Positions 18,006-27,261 of a stretch of DNA of 32,000 nucleotides are shown here, one piece after another. A program made the translations under genes and the position numbers. This stretch comes from Desulfotalea psychrophila LSv54 (lineage in GTDB: Bacteria > Desulfobacterota > Desulfobulbia > Desulfobulbales > Desulfocapsaceae), in the NCBI RefSeq assembly GCF_000025945.1, contig NC_006138.1, positions 3,120,001-3,152,000 on the forward strand. The letters are read 5' to 3'. Below the pieces are notes generated by a model. The model ran no database searches, was not told where the DNA came from, and saw only the letters and a program-made list of their open reading frames with translations. Position 1 is the first letter of the stretch; each line of letters starts with the position of its first letter.

Positions 18006-18042
18006 TCCTTTCTAATTATTGACTTTAACTAACGGAGTATCT

Positions 18043-18792
18043 ATGTCACATCCACAAGAAGAAATGAGTACTAAATTTTATCTTCTTCCCTGTCTTTTCA
18101 CCCTCAGTAGCCTCTTTTGTGGTTTCTACGCCATACTCTCGGCAACCAAGGGAGAATTTGTTGTTTCGGCAATTGCCATTATCGTGGCCGCCGTTTTCGA
18201 CGGTCTTGACGGCCGAGTTGCCCGTATGACAGGTAAGACAAGTATGTTTGGTGTTGAACTTGACTCACTCTGTGACAATGTCTCTTTTGGTGTTGCTCCA
18301 GGTCTACTCGCCTACTTCTGGGCCCTGCAGCCCTACGGACGCTACGGCTGGTTGGCCGCATTTCTCTATATTGCCACCACCACCCTGCGCCTTGCCCGTT
18401 TTAACTCACAACAGACTGACTCTGTGAATTTTATCGGTCTGCCCTGTCCCGCTGCAGCAGCCATGATCTCTTCAGCTGTCCTCTTTTGCCATAGCCTTGG
18501 CATTGAAGGTCCGGTAAAGCATATATCTCTGCTCTTCTTAGTATATCTGCTTTCCTACCTGATGGTCTCCAACCACAGCTACTGTAGCTTCAAAAAAATG
18601 CAGCATAAAGGAAGAACATTTCCGATACTTGTTGGCGCCCTATTGCTCTTCATCCTTGTAGCTGCTGAGCCACAGATAATGTTTTTTGCAATCTTTGTTC
18701 TCTATATTGCCTCTGGAATGGCCACCGATTTATGGAAATGGGCCCAAAAAAGCTCTCTTGGCCATAAGCTCACAAATAAATCAAAACAATAG
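18043..18792 (+). CDS. pssA: CDP-diacylglycerol--serine O-phosphatidyltransferase
   Basis: It carries the CDP-alcohol phosphatidyltransferase motif DGLDGRVAR-x8-G-x-ELDSLCD and is multi-TM. The ATG at 18043 has ACGGAG 6 nt upstream. The psd-pssA pairing supports the call. Confidence 0.85.
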   Translation: MSHPQEEMSTKFYLLPCLFTLSSLFCGFYAILSATKGEFVVSAIAIIVAAVFDGLDGRVARMTGKTSMFGVELDSLCDNVSFGVAPGLLAYFWALQPYGRYGWLAAFLYIATTTLRLARFNSQQTDSVNFIGLPCPAAAAMISSAVLFCHSLGIEGPVKHISLLFLVYLLSYLMVSNHSYCSFKKMQHKGRTFPILVGALLLFILVAAEPQIMFFAIFVLYIASGMATDLWKWAQKSSLGHKLTNKSKQ

Positions 18793-18817
18793 TTCCCTCT
18801 ATCCAAATAGGTTCACC

Positions 18818-19390
18818 TTGAGAATTATTAGTGGTAATGCGCGTGGCAGAAAATTATTTCCGCCACGCAACAATAGTATTCGCCCCACCTCCGACAGAGC
18901 ACGAGAGGCTCTTTTTTCTATCCTTGGTGAACGTGTAGAAGGTTCCTGTATACTTGATTGCTATGCAGGAACCGGAGCCCTTGGTATTGAAGCCCTCAGC
19001 CGTGGTGCAAAATCCGCAGTTTTTATCGATAACTCTAAAGACTCTTTAGAAAATACCGCAAAAAACATCCAATTAGTCTACCCATATCTTGATTCTCCTA
19101 TGATCAAGGTCATCCAACATAACCTCGCTCAATCTCTTCCTCTGCGTAAGTTAGAGTCGATAAATTTCGGCAAAGCAGATATTATTTTCGCAGACCCTCC
19201 CTATTCCAAGGGTTTAGGCCAACTTTTCCTTGACCAATTGGGAGAAACAAAGTTATTACAATCAACTGGTATTGTTGTAATTGAGGAAAGAGTAAGCGAA
19301 ATATTACCGGAGAAAACCACGAACTTTCTCCTCCAGGAGAGACGCACCTACGGCGAAGCCTCTTTTTGGTTCTATACGCCCCTGCAATAA
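18818..19390 (+). CDS. rsmD: 16S rRNA (guanine966-N2)-methyltransferase
   Basis: (M)RIISGNARGRKL..P....IRPTSDRAREALFSIL and the DPPY motif. The start is assigned to TTG 18818 because the track ORF start (18686) lies inside pssA and homologs start at the RIIGG block. The start codon remains uncertain. Confidence 0.8.
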   Translation: MRIISGNARGRKLFPPRNNSIRPTSDRAREALFSILGERVEGSCILDCYAGTGALGIEALSRGAKSAVFIDNSKDSLENTAKNIQLVYPYLDSPMIKVIQHNLAQSLPLRKLESINFGKADIIFADPPYSKGLGQLFLDQLGETKLLQSTGIVVIEERVSEILPEKTTNFLLQERRTYGEASFWFYTPLQ

Positions 19391-19952: not shown

Positions 19953-19987
19953 AATGCTGTGGTAGTAGCTACCACAGCATTTTTTTT
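19953..19987 (+). terminator. intrinsic terminator of the psd-pssA-rsmD-coaD unit (shared hairpin with the convergent 812-aa gene)
   Basis: AATGCTGTGGTAG-tag-CTACCACAGCATT forms a perfect 13-bp stem followed by a T-run. The T-run overlaps the TAA stop (19986-19988) of the convergent ORF. Confidence 0.8.
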
Positions 19988-22424
19988 ACCTGCTATTAAT
20001 TTCTGACCGCAATTGGGAAATTTCTTCACCCAGACCATTTCGCAACTCTTCCAACTCTGCTTTAATTGCATTGACCTCTTCCGTAAGCGATAGTTCTCTC
20101 CCAGCCTCCTCTTCCATCGCAGCATAGAGCAACTCATCATTTTCCTTCTGAACAGATAACTCTTCTGCTGGCACAGGGCTTGTGGCAATATCCTCTCCCT
20201 GTTTATCTACGGCACCCATCACAAAATAACGGGAGATAAGGTCCTGTTGCCACTGCAGCACAGCATAGGTCTGCTGACAGAGTATCTCCTCACCAGCACT
20301 GCGGCGAAGGAGACAGCCCTCTTCCATGGATTCAACAAGAGACTGCAGGAGATGATAGGATCGGTCATCGGCCAAGTAGAGGTAACGATCAATATGCTGA
20401 GCAAGGGTGGAGATCAACTGCAAAAATGACTTCAACAAAATATGTTGGGGATTTTTTTGCCTCAGCTCATTTATATCAGCAACCAGACCCTGAGTAATTT
20501 TTTTATCCAGAACAAACCCCAGAGACTCTATATCCCCCTTAAGCGCCAATAGGGAGAGAGGATCTATAGAAGGAGAGGAACTCAACTCAGGCTGCTCTGC
20601 AGCAATAACAAAATCCTGAGGAGTATCTTCTGCCACTTCCTGAAGGACAAGCCCCTCTGTATCCAACCGGGCCATTTCTTTATCCTCTACTGCTCCTACA
20701 GGAAACGCCTCCTCCACAGATGCATCAACCACGCCCATCTCAACCGGGGCAGATTCTTCATCAAGAAAAGAGAGCACTGGATCCAATGCCTTCTCTAAAA
20801 CAAGGTCTGTTGAAGCAACCACCTCCTTATTCTCTGGTAAAGCTAGAGCCGGAGCAACATCGGAAAGGCCTGCAATCGGTTCAAAGAGTGGGACTGTTTT
20901 CTCACCCACAACCTCCTCATCATCCCCTTCAACATCAAGCCCACCAAGAAGTACCTCCCGGTCAACTGAGCTAAAATCTCCACTGGGAAGATCTCCCGCA
21001 AAAAACTCATCCAAGAGAGCTGTGGTCTCAGCAGAGACATCCTTTTCCTCCACCAGTCCTACGGGAGGGAGGTCAGCGGAGATGCCTGTGGGCACAGCCA
21101 CTACAGCTGCGGGAGAAGTTCCTCGCTCAAACTCAGCTGCAGAATCTGGTTTTTCATCAAGAAAGGAGAGCGCAGGAGCCAGGGTTTGCTCCAGGGCAAG
21201 GTCTGTATCCAACTCCTCCACAGGAGATGGCGCAGAAACAATATGAGAGAGGGCGGCAATCGGCTGAGACAAAGCCTCTTCCTCATCATCCTCTGTCCCC
21301 ACGAAAACTCCTTGCAAAGCAGCATCCAGATCAGAATTTGGAGCGGCAGGATCCTCGGCAGAATTCCACTTCTGTTGATCATCGCCTACCTCTTCAGCGA
21401 AAAAACTGTCCAGGCGCTCCGTTAATTCCTCCTCAGCCAAGACACTACTGGTAGCATGCTCATCAAAGCCATGCACCGCGTCAGCAGGCATATCGGCAAA
21501 GGCGGGCAGGATTTCTGCGACCCCAGTAGTTTCCTCAGCAGAGTCCTCCTCAGGCTTATCTGCTCTATCCATATCCAGAGCCTCAGGAGAGAGGGTGGTG
21601 GCTATTTTTTCTTTAAAAAGATTAAACTCCTCAACCTGTTTTAGCAAAATATCCTTTTCTTCTGCACGAGAAAGTGAAGAAAATGCTACTTTTTCCAAGG
21701 TTTCTAAAAAATTATGGAGAATCGTAAAGACTTCGATATCTGCATCACCTGCCTTGTGGGCAATATAGGCAATGAGGGTTCCTATACCCTGAAGCAAGAG
21801 GAGGCAGGGTTTATTTTTCTTAAAGACCCCTTCCAGACGCAAGACCTCTTGCCGTAAATCGGCAAGTTCGCCTATGCTAATCTCCCAGTCCACCCCCATA
21901 ATAAGTGTTTTAAGTCGCTGCAAGACCGAACTATCATTGGAAAAATCACGGCTCTTTTTTGTTCTCTGCCAGGAGACTATATCCTGCTTAAGAGTTTTAA
22001 AAAGCTCAACATCTCCATAGAGTAGCTCTTTTTCCTTTTCGCCACCTATCTCATGGTTTGAAACAATTTTTTCCAGGCTATTAAAAAAATGAGGAAGCAT
22101 GGTGACAGAACGAGGATAAGCGTCTACTTTTTTCTGATATATATACTTACTCATCTGCTCAAGAATCTGCAGATAAACCAGTTTCACCTGGTCTTCAGCC
22201 CACATATCACGCAAGAGAAGAATCTCTTGATTAAACTGAAGAAGGTTTTCATCCGTTATGTCCCAATCAAGAGAAACAACCAAAGATTTCAACTGAGTCA
22301 AAGGTGATTCCGGGGCATAGTTTTTCAATAAGTCAAAGTCATCTTGCTGGTGATAATCAGCAAAATTATCCATGTCTACTGTCAAATCGTCATCGTACTG
22401 CCCTGCCTTAGAATGCTCTACCAT
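19986..22424 (-). CDS. hypothetical hyper-acidic repeat protein (812 aa), third gene of the mglB-mglA operon
   Basis: It is a long uninterrupted ORF whose ATG lies 9 nt after the mglA stop. It contains three copies of a ~110-aa predicted helical module (LKSLVVSLDWDITDENLLQFNQEILLLR / LKTLIMGVDWEISIGELADLRQEVLRLE / LLALKGDIESLGFVLDKKITQGLVADINELRQ). Residues ~281-612 form a D/E-rich segment containing a tandem duplication. The C-terminal heptad-like tail is EEVNAIKAELEELRNGLGEEISQLRSEI. I recognise no family. Confidence 0.8.
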   Translation of the reverse strand: MVEHSKAGQYDDDLTVDMDNFADYHQQDDFDLLKNYAPESPLTQLKSLVVSLDWDITDENLLQFNQEILLLRDMWAEDQVKLVYLQILEQMSKYIYQKKVDAYPRSVTMLPHFFNSLEKIVSNHEIGGEKEKELLYGDVELFKTLKQDIVSWQRTKKSRDFSNDSSVLQRLKTLIMGVDWEISIGELADLRQEVLRLEGVFKKNKPCLLLLQGIGTLIAYIAHKAGDADIEVFTILHNFLETLEKVAFSSLSRAEEKDILLKQVEEFNLFKEKIATTLSPEALDMDRADKPEEDSAEETTGVAEILPAFADMPADAVHGFDEHATSSVLAEEELTERLDSFFAEEVGDDQQKWNSAEDPAAPNSDLDAALQGVFVGTEDDEEEALSQPIAALSHIVSAPSPVEELDTDLALEQTLAPALSFLDEKPDSAAEFERGTSPAAVVAVPTGISADLPPVGLVEEKDVSAETTALLDEFFAGDLPSGDFSSVDREVLLGGLDVEGDDEEVVGEKTVPLFEPIAGLSDVAPALALPENKEVVASTDLVLEKALDPVLSFLDEESAPVEMGVVDASVEEAFPVGAVEDKEMARLDTEGLVLQEVAEDTPQDFVIAAEQPELSSSPSIDPLSLLALKGDIESLGFVLDKKITQGLVADINELRQKNPQHILLKSFLQLISTLAQHIDRYLYLADDRSYHLLQSLVESMEEGCLLRRSAGEEILCQQTYAVLQWQQDLISRYFVMGAVDKQGEDIATSPVPAEELSVQKENDELLYAAMEEEAGRELSLTEEVNAIKAELEELRNGLGEEISQLRSEINSR
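20733..21437 (-). repeat. intragenic tandem duplication (two ~100-codon acidic units, period about 132 codons)
   Basis: Unit 1 (aa ~330-435) reads ..RLDSFFAEE..GTEDDEEEALSQPIAALS..DLALEQTLAPALSFLDEK. Unit 2 (aa ~465-564) reads ..LLDEFFAGD..VEGDDEEVVGEKTVPLFEPIAGLS..DLVLEKALDPVLSFLDEE. The similarity is visible at the DNA level: ttcatcaagaaaGgagagcGcAgga (from 21153) versus ttcatcaagaaaAgagagcAcTgga (from 20757). Confidence 0.7.
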
Positions 22425-22433
22425 AACTGATCT

Positions 22434-23039
22434 CTAAAGTAATTTTTTCTGTATAGAAACCACCGTTGAGGAAATGATTTTCTTCAGGGTTGCTGCCACG
22501 TTATAACCAGTAATTGCACTTGCCTCGAATGAGGGCACCTTAAGCCGGCTATTAAGATCTTGTTCTAGAACAGAAGTTGGTAAAATGGGGATGCCATGTT
22601 GGCCAAGGTCAACCTTGTTATATTGTAAAACAAGGGGAATATCAAAGATATTTTCTTTATACGACTGCAGATTTTCATGCAATTGATTCAGGGATCGAAT
22701 ATTTTTTTCCCGTTGTTTTTCCATTGCATCGGCTACAAAAACGATCCCATCAACACCACGCAGAACAAGCTTCCTCGTGGCATTATACTTCACCTGCCCA
22801 GGTACCGTATAAAGTTGTATTTTTACGTCATAGCCCTTGACCTTACCCATATTAAAGGGCAAAAAATCAAAGAACAGGGTTCTATCGCCATGAGTCTTCA
22901 GGCTGACCATTTCCGATGATATCTGTTTGCGATACGCCTTATTAATATACTCAAGGTTCGTTGTCTTACCACAACGGCCAGGACCATAATAAACAATCTT
23001 GACCTGAACAATTTTCTCTTTTAGGTTAATGAAACTCAA
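22434..23039 (-). CDS. mglA: MglA-family Ras-like small GTPase (gliding/twitching polarity switch)
   Basis: [32 protein letters not shown]...[10 protein letters not shown]...[29 protein letters not shown]...LQYNKVDL is nearly collinear with Myxococcus xanthus MglA as I recall it ([32 protein letters not shown]...). TTG start at 23039 with GGGAGG 6 nt upstream. Confidence 0.88.
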   Translation of the reverse strand: [201 protein letters not shown]

Positions 23040-23092
23040 GATAAACCTCCCACAAATTGTCTCTCCGATTTTAAATATTTCGGTTACGACCT

Positions 23093-23497
23093 CTACTTCT
23101 CCTTAGAACCCCAAATCGTTCTTATCCCCTCAATGACATCAACAACATTAAGCCTTAAAAATCCGAGAGAAATATCTTTACCAAACATACAGATAAGAAG
23201 TAACTCATCATCTATTTTGCTAAAATGAATACTGGAATCCTGACCTTTGTGGAAGAGTAGAGAAAACTCCTGCTCTCCTACAAGTTTCGCCATCGCATCT
23301 ACAGTCGCAAAATTTCCTGCCGCAAGAGCTGCAAAAGAATAAACATCATACTTACTTTCAGTATTATCCTTAGCCGTTATAATATTTCCTGCCATATCAA
23401 TAACTACAACACAGTCGACACCCAAATCAATCAACTTGGTCGTTATTATCTGATCGATTTGCTCAATCTGCTCCTGGCTGACGATCCCATAGTTCAT
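23093..23497 (-). CDS. mglB: Roadblock/LC7-domain protein, MglB-like GAP of MglA
   Basis: 134 aa. VVVIDMAGNIITA...SFAALAAGNFATVDAMAKLVGEQEFSLLFHKGQDSSIHF...LGFLRLNV aligns by eye with M. xanthus MglB (VVFLVDKNGQLIS...SLASLTAGNVAAMGGLAKLIGENEFPNQFHEG..DSLYM...LGLVRLRI). It lies immediately upstream of mglA, as in Myxococcus. Confidence 0.85.
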   Translation of the reverse strand: MNYGIVSQEQIEQIDQIITTKLIDLGVDCVVVIDMAGNIITAKDNTESKYDVYSFAALAAGNFATVDAMAKLVGEQEFSLLFHKGQDSSIHFSKIDDELLLICMFGKDISLGFLRLNVVDVIEGIRTIWGSKEK

Positions 23498-23844
23498 ACA
23501 TTTAACCTCTTTATAAAATATTGATTTCCCTCAATGACTCCACAGACAAGCCTAAGTAAAGCCTTATGAAGGACTCAGCACGGACAAGCCCAAATGATAA
23601 TTTTTCGTCCCCCGAACTCCTGCTTTTCAAGAAGTAACAATACAAAACTTCAGCGACAAGGAGAAAAAGAAGAGCTTTAAATGACCTTCTTCTCATCTGG
23701 GCATCTCAATAATTCCCCAGCCCCTGTTCCACAAAAAGAGCATCGAAAAAATCCTTTCACTCTAAGAAGTAACGAATTAATAATATTCTAACATAGATAA
23801 AAGAAAAACATAGCTACAAAACTCACACAAAACAGAGGTCTCTT

Positions 23845-25420: not shown

Positions 25421-25666
25421 TTACTTGCCCTTTGATGCTCTTTTTGCTGCTTTCAGTGGGTTGATACGTACTTTGCTTACAGCAATCTCAATTTTTGCGT
25501 GAGTTGCAAAGTTACACATCCCAAGCTTCCACTTTGCTTCAGGGTTGAGGTAGGTAGAGCAAAACTTGTTGCCCTCTTGCTCTACGATCCTATCACAGCC
25601 TTCACACTTTTCAACAACTACCTTAAAGCAACCATCATTATAATTCACAGCAGCGTTTTTTTGCAT
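25421..25666 (-). CDS. PxxKW-family cysteine-rich small protein
   Basis: 81 aa with CEGC, CSTYLNPEAKWKLGMCNFATH (a P-x-x-K-W motif) and a basic tail. The family name is recalled from RefSeq naming and is not verified. Confidence 0.6.
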   Translation of the reverse strand: MQKNAAVNYNDGCFKVVVEKCEGCDRIVEQEGNKFCSTYLNPEAKWKLGMCNFATHAKIEIAVSKVRINPLKAAKRASKGK

Positions 25667-26055: not shown

Positions 26056-27261
26056 ATGCCTATTTATACTTGGAAAGGAGTTAACTCCTACGGCGATAAA
26101 CGTAAAGGTGAGGTGGAGGCAGTAGATGCGACTGCCGCACTTAACCAAATTAAACGTCTACGTATAAACGCCCCTGTTATCAAGGAAAAGCCCAAAGATT
26201 TATTGGCAAGTATCTCTTTTTTTCAGCCTAAGGTAACAGGTAAGGATATTGTTATTTTTACCAGAATGCTTTCGACCATGATCGATGCAGGCCTTCCTCT
26301 GGTACAGGGTATAGAGATATTGGAACAACAACAGGAAAACCCCACCTTTAAAAAGGCTATCGGCAAAATCAAGGGCGATGTCGAATCCGGGACAACCCTG
26401 GCCGATTCTATGCGAAAACACCCAAAAATATTCGACAAGCTCTTTACCAATATGATTGAAGCAGGAGAAACAGGTGGTATACTTGACACCATCCTGCAAA
26501 GACTTGCCGCCTTTATGGAAAAGTCTATGGCCCTGAAGAAAAAAATAAAAGGAGCCATGACCTACCCTACAATATGCCTTGCTATATCCATTCTCATCCT
26601 CATCATTATTCTGGTTTTCGTCGTACCCGTCTTTTCACAAATGTTTGCCGATTTTGGTTCCAGCCTGCCCCTGCCCACGCAAATAGTTGTCAATATGAGT
26701 GATTTCTTCAAAAACAATATCATATACATGCTTATCGCCCTCTTTGCTCTCATGGCCGCTGTCAAAAAAATATACACGACCGAGAAGGGGCAAATCGCAA
26801 TAGACAAAATACTTCTTCAGGCACCTGTTGTAGGGCCACTTCTACGCAAGGTTGCTGTGGCAAAATTCACCAGAACCCTCAGTACCATGCTGCAAAGCGG
26901 TGTCCCCATCCTCGAAGCACTTCAGGTTGTTGCCAAAACCGCCGGCAACAAGATCATTGAACGGGCCGTTTTTCGGGTAGCAGATGGTATCGCCGAAGGA
27001 CGCCCCATGGCAGAACCCCTTGAAGAGAGCGGTGTCTTCCCCAATATGGTTACCCAAATGATTAATGTAGGTGAATCGGTGGGAGCACTCGATGCAATGC
27101 TGGAAAAAATTGCAGACTTTTACGATGGGGAGGTGGATCAGGCTGTTGATAACCTTACTGCCATGATCGAACCTTTTATGATGGTTTTTCTCGGCGGCAT
27201 GATTGGTGGCTTGGTTGTCGCCATGTATCTGCCTATCTTTAAAATGGCCTCTGTTGTTTGA
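26056..27261 (+). CDS. pilC: type IV pilus inner-membrane platform protein (GspF/PilC family)
   Basis: 401 aa with two repeats of the T2SS-F domain (FTRMLSTMIDAGLPL..GIEIL and FTRTLSTMLQSGVPILEAL). It has three TM segments and a C-terminal EP.MMVFLGG.IGGLVVAMYLPIF. GGAG lies 8 nt upstream. Confidence 0.88.
   Translation: MPIYTWKGVNSYGDKRKGEVEAVDATAALNQIKRLRINAPVIKEKPKDLLASISFFQPKVTGKDIVIFTRMLSTMIDAGLPLVQGIEILEQQQENPTFKKAIGKIKGDVESGTTLADSMRKHPKIFDKLFTNMIEAGETGGILDTILQRLAAFMEKSMALKKKIKGAMTYPTICLAISILILIIILVFVVPVFSQMFADFGSSLPLPTQIVVNMSDFFKNNIIYMLIALFALMAAVKKIYTTEKGQIAIDKILLQAPVVGPLLRKVAVAKFTRTLSTMLQSGVPILEALQVVAKTAGNKIIERAVFRVADGIAEGRPMAEPLEESGVFPNMVTQMINVGESVGALDAMLEKIADFYDGEVDQAVDNLTAMIEPFMMVFLGGMIGGLVVAMYLPIFKMASVV

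Follow-up and report, generated by a model that had tools for sequence, protein, structure and literature searches.

The 32,000-nucleotide stretch of Desulfotalea psychrophila LSv54 analysed here (contig NC_006138.1, positions 3,120,001 to 3,152,000; hereafter the window, with coordinates counted from its first nucleotide) carries on its minus strand the genes mglB and mglA, which encode a polarity GTPase module, followed directly by a gene for a large, very acidic protein that we designate X. Across all related loci inspected, mglB-mglA-X proved to be an invariant three-gene unit, and the best overall explanation is that X is a third, lineage-specific component of the MglA/MglB module in the order Desulfobulbales. 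We assign this reading a probability of about 0.7, by which we mean that X is functionally linked with the two other proteins, whatever the specific mechanism.

MglA and MglB constitute the best-understood front-rear polarity switch of bacteria, one that is known mostly from Myxococcus and to some extent from Thermus and Bdellovibrio, and the proteins that regulate it, such as RomR/X/Y, MglC, and SgmX, are largely lineage-specific. What is known at the present locus is the MglA/MglB module itself; what is new is an operon-fixed third component of an undescribed family, together with an MglB that lacks its C-terminal tail. A whole order of ecologically important sulfur cyclers, gliding cable bacteria included, has this invariant three-gene version of the system, and X, whose family is without a name, a domain model, or a solved relative, offers a concrete new protein for study.

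Conservation of the mglB-mglA-X unit

A preliminary description of the locus, made from the sequence of the window, had reported three co-directional genes, a GTPase bearing a P-loop and the block YTVPGQ, and a spacer of only 9 nt ahead of the large open reading frame (ORF). All of this is borne out: the three genes lie on the minus strand (Table 1), both GTPase motifs are present, and AGATCAGTT follows the TAG stop codon of mglA. The window MglA matches the solved M. xanthus MglA in the PDB (6hjh) at E=2.7e-50 over residues 1-196, and its catalytic residues R53, T78, and Q82 are invariant in 159/159 relatives. MglB matches its PDB counterparts (6h5b/6izw) at E~1e-14 and scores above the cut-off of Pfam Robl_LC7 (PF03259); its match to the NCBIfam MglB model (E=4e-13) falls under the equivalog cut-off, and the Pfam and NCBIfam assignments agree for both proteins. 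One pipeline automatically gives many MglA orthologues the name 'signal recognition particle receptor subunit beta', which looks wrong.

The linkage of X to this module holds in both search directions. With X as the query, mglB-mglA lies directly upstream in 81/81 genome loci that have upstream sequence; with MglA as the query, X lies directly downstream and mglB upstream in 80/80 metagenome loci, in which MglA is 83-93% identical to that of the window. The junction is equally constant. The mglA-X spacer measures 8-13 nt in 75/75 measured loci, and its first nucleotides, adjoining the stop codon, form a conserved purine-rich AGAGA(A/G). This conserved junction, combined with the weak Shine-Dalgarno sequence in the window, points to translational coupling of X to mglA, for which the junction is a likely site. 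As the preliminary description had stated, no minus-strand terminator-like site is present there, and no promoter-like signal that might indicate independent expression of X was detected between mglA and X; across the region, promoter matches were found at chance level (8 versus 6.0 expected). The opposite side of X provides a control flank, as the next gene is coaD in 22 of 78 loci and a different one in the remaining 56, among them genes for Rieske/cytochrome b, an FGE-sulfatase, and lpxA/lpxI. In the window, mglA and X share one reading frame, with TAG and 9 nt between them, and in-frame spacers of 9 or 12 nt occur in 43/75 related loci; programmed read-through or an mglA-X fusion is rejected because the spacers of 32/75 loci are out of frame.

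The X family is large. Full-length X retrieved 182 proteins in a word-indexed search, an exhaustive search with a profile of its N-terminal region found 926 clusters at 50% identity (294 under 1e-30; the best 150 of the 926 were listed), and a pattern scan located relatives in 337 species genomes. X is a real gene, and hundreds of homologues exist at the protein level; a D. psychrophila 'hypothetical protein' (P0001) matches its product at 100% identity. Pfam domains and informative names are missing throughout the family. The taxonomic labels are nearly all Desulfobulbales or an unspecific 'delta proteobacterium', and include Desulfocapsaceae, Desulfobulbaceae, Desulforhopalus, Desulfopila, Desulfofustis, Desulfoprunum, and Candidatus Electronema. 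The last of these supplies a cable-bacterium member (P0247), so that the occurrence of the family in both Desulfobulbales and cable bacteria, which the preliminary description had raised, is now documented. A few metagenome-assembled genomes are labelled Desulfobacterales, Myxococcota, or Desulfoarculaceae, and the locus labelled Desulfoarculaceae has the mglB-mglA-X trio too. Outgroup MglA loci were sought, and none occurred among the top 120 MglA matches, all of which are at least 84% identical and belong to one clade. Our literature search found no paper linking MglA to Desulfobulbales or cable bacteria, and a survey of prokaryotic small GTPases described group 1 MglA as being without a conserved neighbour (Wuichet & Sogaard-Andersen 2014, PMC4316618).

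Three helical modules and an acidic centre in X

Asp and Glu account for 20.8% of the residues of X and Lys and Arg for 7.8%, giving a net charge of -106 and upholding its earlier description as hyper-acidic. The absence of receiver, tetratricopeptide repeat (TPR), P-loop, and transmembrane signatures noted at that time also holds. No profile for the first three matched, and the highest 19-residue Kyte-Doolittle mean, which AVVAVPTGISADLPPVGLV reaches with 1.47, is not that of a transmembrane segment. Full-length X has no match in Pfam, NCBIfam, or the PDB sequences, and a pooled profile of its modules retrieved nothing meaningful from PDB sequences or Pfam.

Self-comparison and profile-profile comparison nevertheless resolve three homologous modules in X, R1 to R3, each of ~115 residues. 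R1 and R2 align with each other at 99.9% probability in hhalign (E=1.4e-31), and the more divergent R3 aligns with R1 at 98% (E=1.5e-13) and with R2 at 97.9% (E=3.7e-13). A full-length model built with AlphaFold2 from 73 homologues predicts R1, R2, and R3 each as a five-helix bundle, all with a pLDDT score (see below) above 90, and a model of the module by itself reached a predicted local distance difference test (pLDDT) value of 92.8 and a predicted template-modelling (pTM) score of 0.86. The modelled structure consists of three discrete bundles rather than an SgmX-type array, and no TPR profile matched X.

The segments outside the modules are predicted to be largely disordered, yet they carry conserved motifs. 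In the N-terminal acidic motif, Y10, D11, D13, L14, and T15 are invariant among the 73 aligned homologues; D-L-F-E-F is also conserved in the disordered N-terminus, and PAFAD and GFQEE follow R2. The units of the acidic centre are marked by the motifs ΦDxFF-acidic, (A)LQG(V/L)xVE-acidic, P-I-A-(A/G)-L, and (P)xLSFLDE, and X homologues range from 602 to 1353 aa in length because the number of these units varies. At the DNA level, no tandem repeats were found within the X ORF. The C-terminal helix, with the family consensus EI..LR..L..EIAELR, is judging from the model probably a coiled-coil or oligomerisation element.

Table 1. Positions of the three genes, of the segments of X, and of adjoining features in the window
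Feature	Position	Strand	Description
tatD-mglB intergenic region	23498..23844	minus	347 nt between divergent genes; only room for an operon promoter
mglB	23497..23093	minus	134 aa; minimal Roadblock/LC7 GTPase-activating protein (GAP) without acidic C-terminal helix
mglA	23039..22434	minus	201 aa; Ras-like polarity GTPase; TTG start, GGGAGG before start
mglA-X junction	22425..22436	minus	stop TAG and 9-nt spacer AGATCAGTT, then ATG of X
X (large ORF)	22424..19986	minus	812 aa; hyper-acidic; unnamed Desulfobulbales family
N-terminal acidic motif Q-Y-D-D-D-L-T-V	22377..22400	minus	residues 9-16; disordered N-terminus, pLDDT ~50
Module R1	21948..22307	minus	residues 40-159; predicted five-helix bundle, DW(D/E)I signature; pLDDT >90
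Module R2	21561..21935	minus	residues 164-288; R1 paralogue; LQGIGTL..YI signature
Disordered acidic centre	20583..21560	minus	residues 289-614 (~325); two degenerate units; pLDDT <50
ΦDxFF copy 1, EELTERLDSFFAEE	21390..21431	minus	residues 332-345; 32.7 bits with position-specific scoring matrix (PSSM); predicted short helix, helices 322-341
ΦDxFF copy 2, AETTALLDEFFAGD	20991..21032	minus	residues 465-478; PSSM 16.1 bits; predicted short helix 465-474
Module R3	20211..20564	minus	residues 621-738; divergent third copy; pLDDT >90
C-terminal long helix	19992..20123	minus	residues 768-811; single predicted 44-residue helix, pLDDT 86-92
Hairpin	19953..19981		between convergent coaD and X; perfect 13 bp; T-tract on + strand only

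Acidic motifs, the missing MglB tail, and a proposed role for X

As in Myxococcus mglBA, the core of the locus is made up of mglB and mglA in this order, MglA has the residues R53/T78/Q82, and MglB is a Roadblock protein, but the locus differs in two respects: the operon of every genome examined holds a third gene, and its MglB is without the C-terminal helix. In M. xanthus, this Ct-helix (residues 147-157, with I148, D150-152, D154, L156, and F157 named and contacts made by D150-D152, D154, and F157) binds a pocket of MglA formed by K181/K185 of helix alpha5 and L64/I67 of the beta2-beta3 loop; it holds MglB on MglA-GDP and promotes nucleotide exchange, a role that was later confirmed and extended (PMC13408092), and acidic tails of MglB have co-evolved with positive charge on alpha5 (Baranwal 2019, PMC6785124). 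The window MglB terminates 6 residues past the position aligned to Mx residue 129, and MglB proteins terminate 2-6 residues past the Roadblock core in 157/159 related loci; a Myxococcus-type, D/E-rich C-terminal helix extending >15 residues beyond the Roadblock core is absent from the window MglB and from the same 157/159 relatives. On the MglA side, K186 of helix alpha5, the equivalent of Mx K181, is present in 159/159 relatives and K187 in 157/159, and positions 64 and 67 remain hydrophobic. At the level of these alignments, the tail of MglB is shown to have been lost in the clade, with the MglA pocket partly retained.

Motifs resembling the lost tail occur in X. In the linkers of 206 X family members, the pattern [ILVM]D.FF..[DE] appears 247 times against 3.9 expected from shuffling, a 63-fold excess. 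The corresponding consensus, (D/E)(I/V/L)(E/D)xx(L/I/V)DxFF(G/D/A)(E/D)(E/D), parallels I-S-D-D-D-I-D-N-L-F-S-E of Mx MglB at acidic, aliphatic, Asp, aromatic, and acidic positions, and the YDDDL of the X N-terminus resembles the D150-D152/I153 part of the Ct-helix. The Mx tail was verified as EISDDDIDNLFSE (longer tail ...SPFAEISDDDIDNLFSE), and the ΦDxFF matrix scores it at +5.9 bits in the expected register, which exceeds all 6,025 windows drawn from the other proteins encoded in the stretch and 99.93% of shuffled acidic windows. The motif peptides EELTERLDSFFAEE and GQYDDDLTVDMDNF would be candidate ligands of MglA. The motifs differ from the Ct-helix in residing in a separate protein, in being repeated, and in having FF where MglB has LF.

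A second precedent for such short acidic-hydrophobic helices, represented in X by (D/E)Φ(D/E)xxΦDxFF(x)(D/E)(D/E) and YDDDL, is the Glu-rich C-terminus of RomR, a proposed polar scaffold acting with MglA/MglB (PMC3441718). RomR also combines a long low-complexity linker with an acidic region; the likeness of X to Glu-rich RomR-C is compositional only. A RomR helix has been transplanted in this system before (PMC6785124). RomR has an N-terminal receiver domain and a Pro-rich linker, whereas X is built with three helical modules and its gene lies within the mglBA operon. The Pfam Response_reg profile has no match in X, whose N-terminus is predicted to be disordered and then to run into helical bundles.

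X is, in our estimation, quite probably tied functionally to MglA/MglB, a partner status that we infer from genomic linkage. In the reading that we prefer, X would be a cytoplasmic multivalent scaffold or regulator, produced from one transcript with mglB and mglA and probably coupled to mglA in translation. It would bind MglA and/or MglA-MglB2 through its acidic-hydrophobic helical motifs, that is, the N-terminal YDDDL and one to four ΦDxFF-acidic motifs of the linker, acting in the manner of an MglB Ct-helix or a Glu-rich RomR tail supplied in trans. With several motifs per chain and oligomerisation through the C-terminal helix, X might gather MglA, or keep it, at a single site that is presumably a pole, and might also tune nucleotide exchange or release, while its CheA-P1-like modules might dock further partners, for example receiver-domain regulators or type IV pilus components. 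The specific proposition that the X motifs bind the MglA pocket, a Ct-helix in trans, is decidedly tentative, yet docking of acidic helix motifs on the alpha5 pocket, as a substitute for the absent tail of MglB, is a specific, falsifiable mechanism, and it is directly relevant to the current discussion of the control that the MglB Ct-helix and RomR exert on the MglA cycle (PMC6785124, PMC13408092).

It is enticing to speculate further that Desulfobulbales have split the dual GAP/exchange function of Myxococcus MglB, such that the minimal MglB keeps the GAP surface and the acidic helix has moved to X. The moved element would be the allosteric helix that holds MglA-GDP and promotes exchange, now present in several copies and accompanied by three P1-like docking modules. 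We regard this idea as doubtful; if true, X would represent a new regulator class for small GTPases, serving in trans as a factor for exchange or retention and also as a polar concentrator, and could connect the polarity GTPase with the pilus-based or gliding movement of cable bacteria and sulfate reducers.

Several observations weigh against a direct partnership or against its proposed mechanism. An unbiased comparison of the ΦDxFF profile with all PDB sequences did not retrieve MglB, so the likeness to the MglB tail, significant as a pre-specified comparison and not at database scale, is suggestive only. The equivalent of Mx K185 in the window MglA is Ser. Thermus MglB also is without a Ct-helix and works without a known trans factor (PMC13408092), and hence a missing tail need not be compensated. 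Nearly all loci belong to a single order, and the upstream genes tatD-yggS are likewise kept in 83/92 loci, so that phylogenetic inertia accounts for part of the synteny. Finally, X evolves much faster than its neighbours (about 40% identity versus about 90% for MglA; in ranges, 38-47% for the X N-terminal region, 87-93% for MglA, and 79-90% for MglB), which is unusual for an obligate stoichiometric partner yet normal for disordered scaffolds.

Among other explanations, the one that survives best, and which we consider possible though not favoured, makes X a landmark or hub of the pole with a function analogous to that of FimV/HubP/RomR/PopZ; X would assemble with itself by way of the acidic disordered region and the C-terminal helix and would organise the pole. 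MglA/MglB would then be only some of its clients, or be recruited indirectly, and the acidic motifs would bind other proteins instead of the MglA pocket. The ~325 disordered acidic residues, whose repeats differ in number among homologues, and the C-terminal helix suit such a role, and operon membership fits it equally. X shares with FimV/HubP its strong acidity, repeat-richness, and large size, and Joint Genome Institute (JGI) pipelines label the family 'pilus assembly protein FimV', presumably by composition. The label is to be rejected, as LysM, transmembrane helix, TPR, and FimV C-terminal domain are all absent (Pfam/NCBIfam, E<=1) and the C-terminus of X consists of module R3 and a single helix rather than a FimV C-terminal/TPR domain; the present analysis would correct this annotation and that of MglA as 'SRP receptor beta subunit'. 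Lacking these elements, X cannot be anchored to wall or membrane in the way of FimV/HubP, and it also is without a RomR-like receiver domain. The hub explanation in any case overlaps largely with that of a module component and departs from it only on direct contact with MglA.

An unlikely alternative places X in a chemosensory pathway, as a degenerate adaptor or phosphotransfer protein of the kind of FimL or the non-phosphorylatable ChpA Xpt domains; its three bundles would dock CheY-like receivers and so join a Frz/Chp-like pathway to MglA/MglB. The best compact Foldseek matches of the module in the PDB are CheA P1/HPt domains, led by 8c5v_C (TM-scores 0.72/0.63, probability 0.99) and including 1i5n, 3kyi, 2lp4, and 3us6 (0.5-0.72 overall), and X may resemble CheA P1/HPt, ChpA Xpt, and FimL in its predicted five-helix bundle of ~115 residues, which is repeated and set apart by acidic linkers, and in a probable tie to the polarity of pili or motility. 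By one proposal, the non-phosphorylated Xpt domains of ChpA serve as binding scaffolds, FimL/FimV localise PilG (PMC12632253), and receiver-domain proteins feed the MglA/MglB module of Myxococcus (PMC3441718). The fold match is statistically weak, however: no Foldseek comparison gave an E-value under 0.3, identities were 5-18%, and bundles of helices find matches readily. At E<=10, 0/66 module sequences match the Hpt profile PF01627, and the module profile recovers no CheA or HPt from PDB sequences. Nor is any His conserved across the three modules, in which the near-invariant columns are L, E, E, L, Q, I, L, L, and L; His103/His229 are conserved only in R1/R2, and the aligned residue of R3 is Ser. 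X further lacks a kinase domain, no che or receiver genes lie nearby, and the comparison with a FimL-like degenerate Hpt scaffold is one of analogy only, no FimL sequence or structure having appeared among the search matches. The Hpt identity, prompted by the LQGIGTL..YI signature, is therefore rejected beyond a likeness of fold, the module being P1-like in fold only as far as the model goes, and is kept solely as a rival explanation. Because it lacks defining features of each, X belongs to none of the groups FimV, RomR, SgmX, and Hpt; by analogy it may work like an MglB Ct-helix or RomR tail, or like the FimL/ChpA Xpt scaffolds.

That X is unrelated to MglA/MglB, an acidic passenger placed in the operon by historical accident and kept there by order-wide synteny, is very unlikely: the evidence for a link is all genomic and essentially from one order, and the conserved tatD-yggS and the fast divergence of X count in favour of such an accident, but adjacency in 161/161 loci over both search directions, the short junction with its conserved sequence, and the change of partner on the other side of X in 56 of 78 loci together amount to a coupling too tight, across hundreds of species, to be expected of unrelated genes. 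The preliminary description had put X forward as a candidate MglA partner or scaffold, and that proposal is supported: no characterised family matched confidently by sequence, profile, or structure, mglBA synteny persists in relatives, and no promoter- or terminator-like signal appeared between mglA and X.

Flanking features and neighbouring genes

In one respect the preliminary description requires correction. It had placed a strong terminator of the large ORF at 19953-19987, but the hairpin found there (19953-19981) is assigned to the convergent gene coaD because its T-tract sits on the + strand; read on the minus strand, an A-run precedes the hairpin and no T-tract follows. By these sequence features it is primarily the coaD terminator and, flanked on the + strand by an A-run on one side and a T-run on the other, at most a candidate bidirectional terminator shared by coaD and X. 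At the other end of the operon, AGAGG precedes the ATG of mglB, and a sigma-70 scan of the 347-nt tatD-mglB region yielded no convincing match. The same intergenic region contains a 61-aa ORF (23511-23696, minus) that probably is no gene. Searches of the window for Rfam families and tRNAs found none.

The pilC gene that had been noted 3.6 kb away is present as a PilC/T2SSF gene at 26056-27261 (+), the distance being counted from the X start, and no pilB/pilT/pilM-Q adjoins it in the window. At one related locus (L002), a T2SSF gene stands at the position matching that of the window pilC and is followed by an HU-like gene. Between yggS and pilC lies a gene for an 81-aa, cysteine-containing DUF6811 protein (25421-25666, minus; E=2e-29), and a DUF6811 gene also occurs near the mglB-mglA-X trio in three other loci (L001-L003). 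Elsewhere on the + strand, a pssA-like ORF (18019-18792) and a Cons_hypoth95 ORF (18686-19390), whose domain denotes the RsmD-like methyltransferase family, overlap by ~100 nt when read from their first possible starts; the true start of the second probably lies further downstream, because its Pfam match starts at residue 45.

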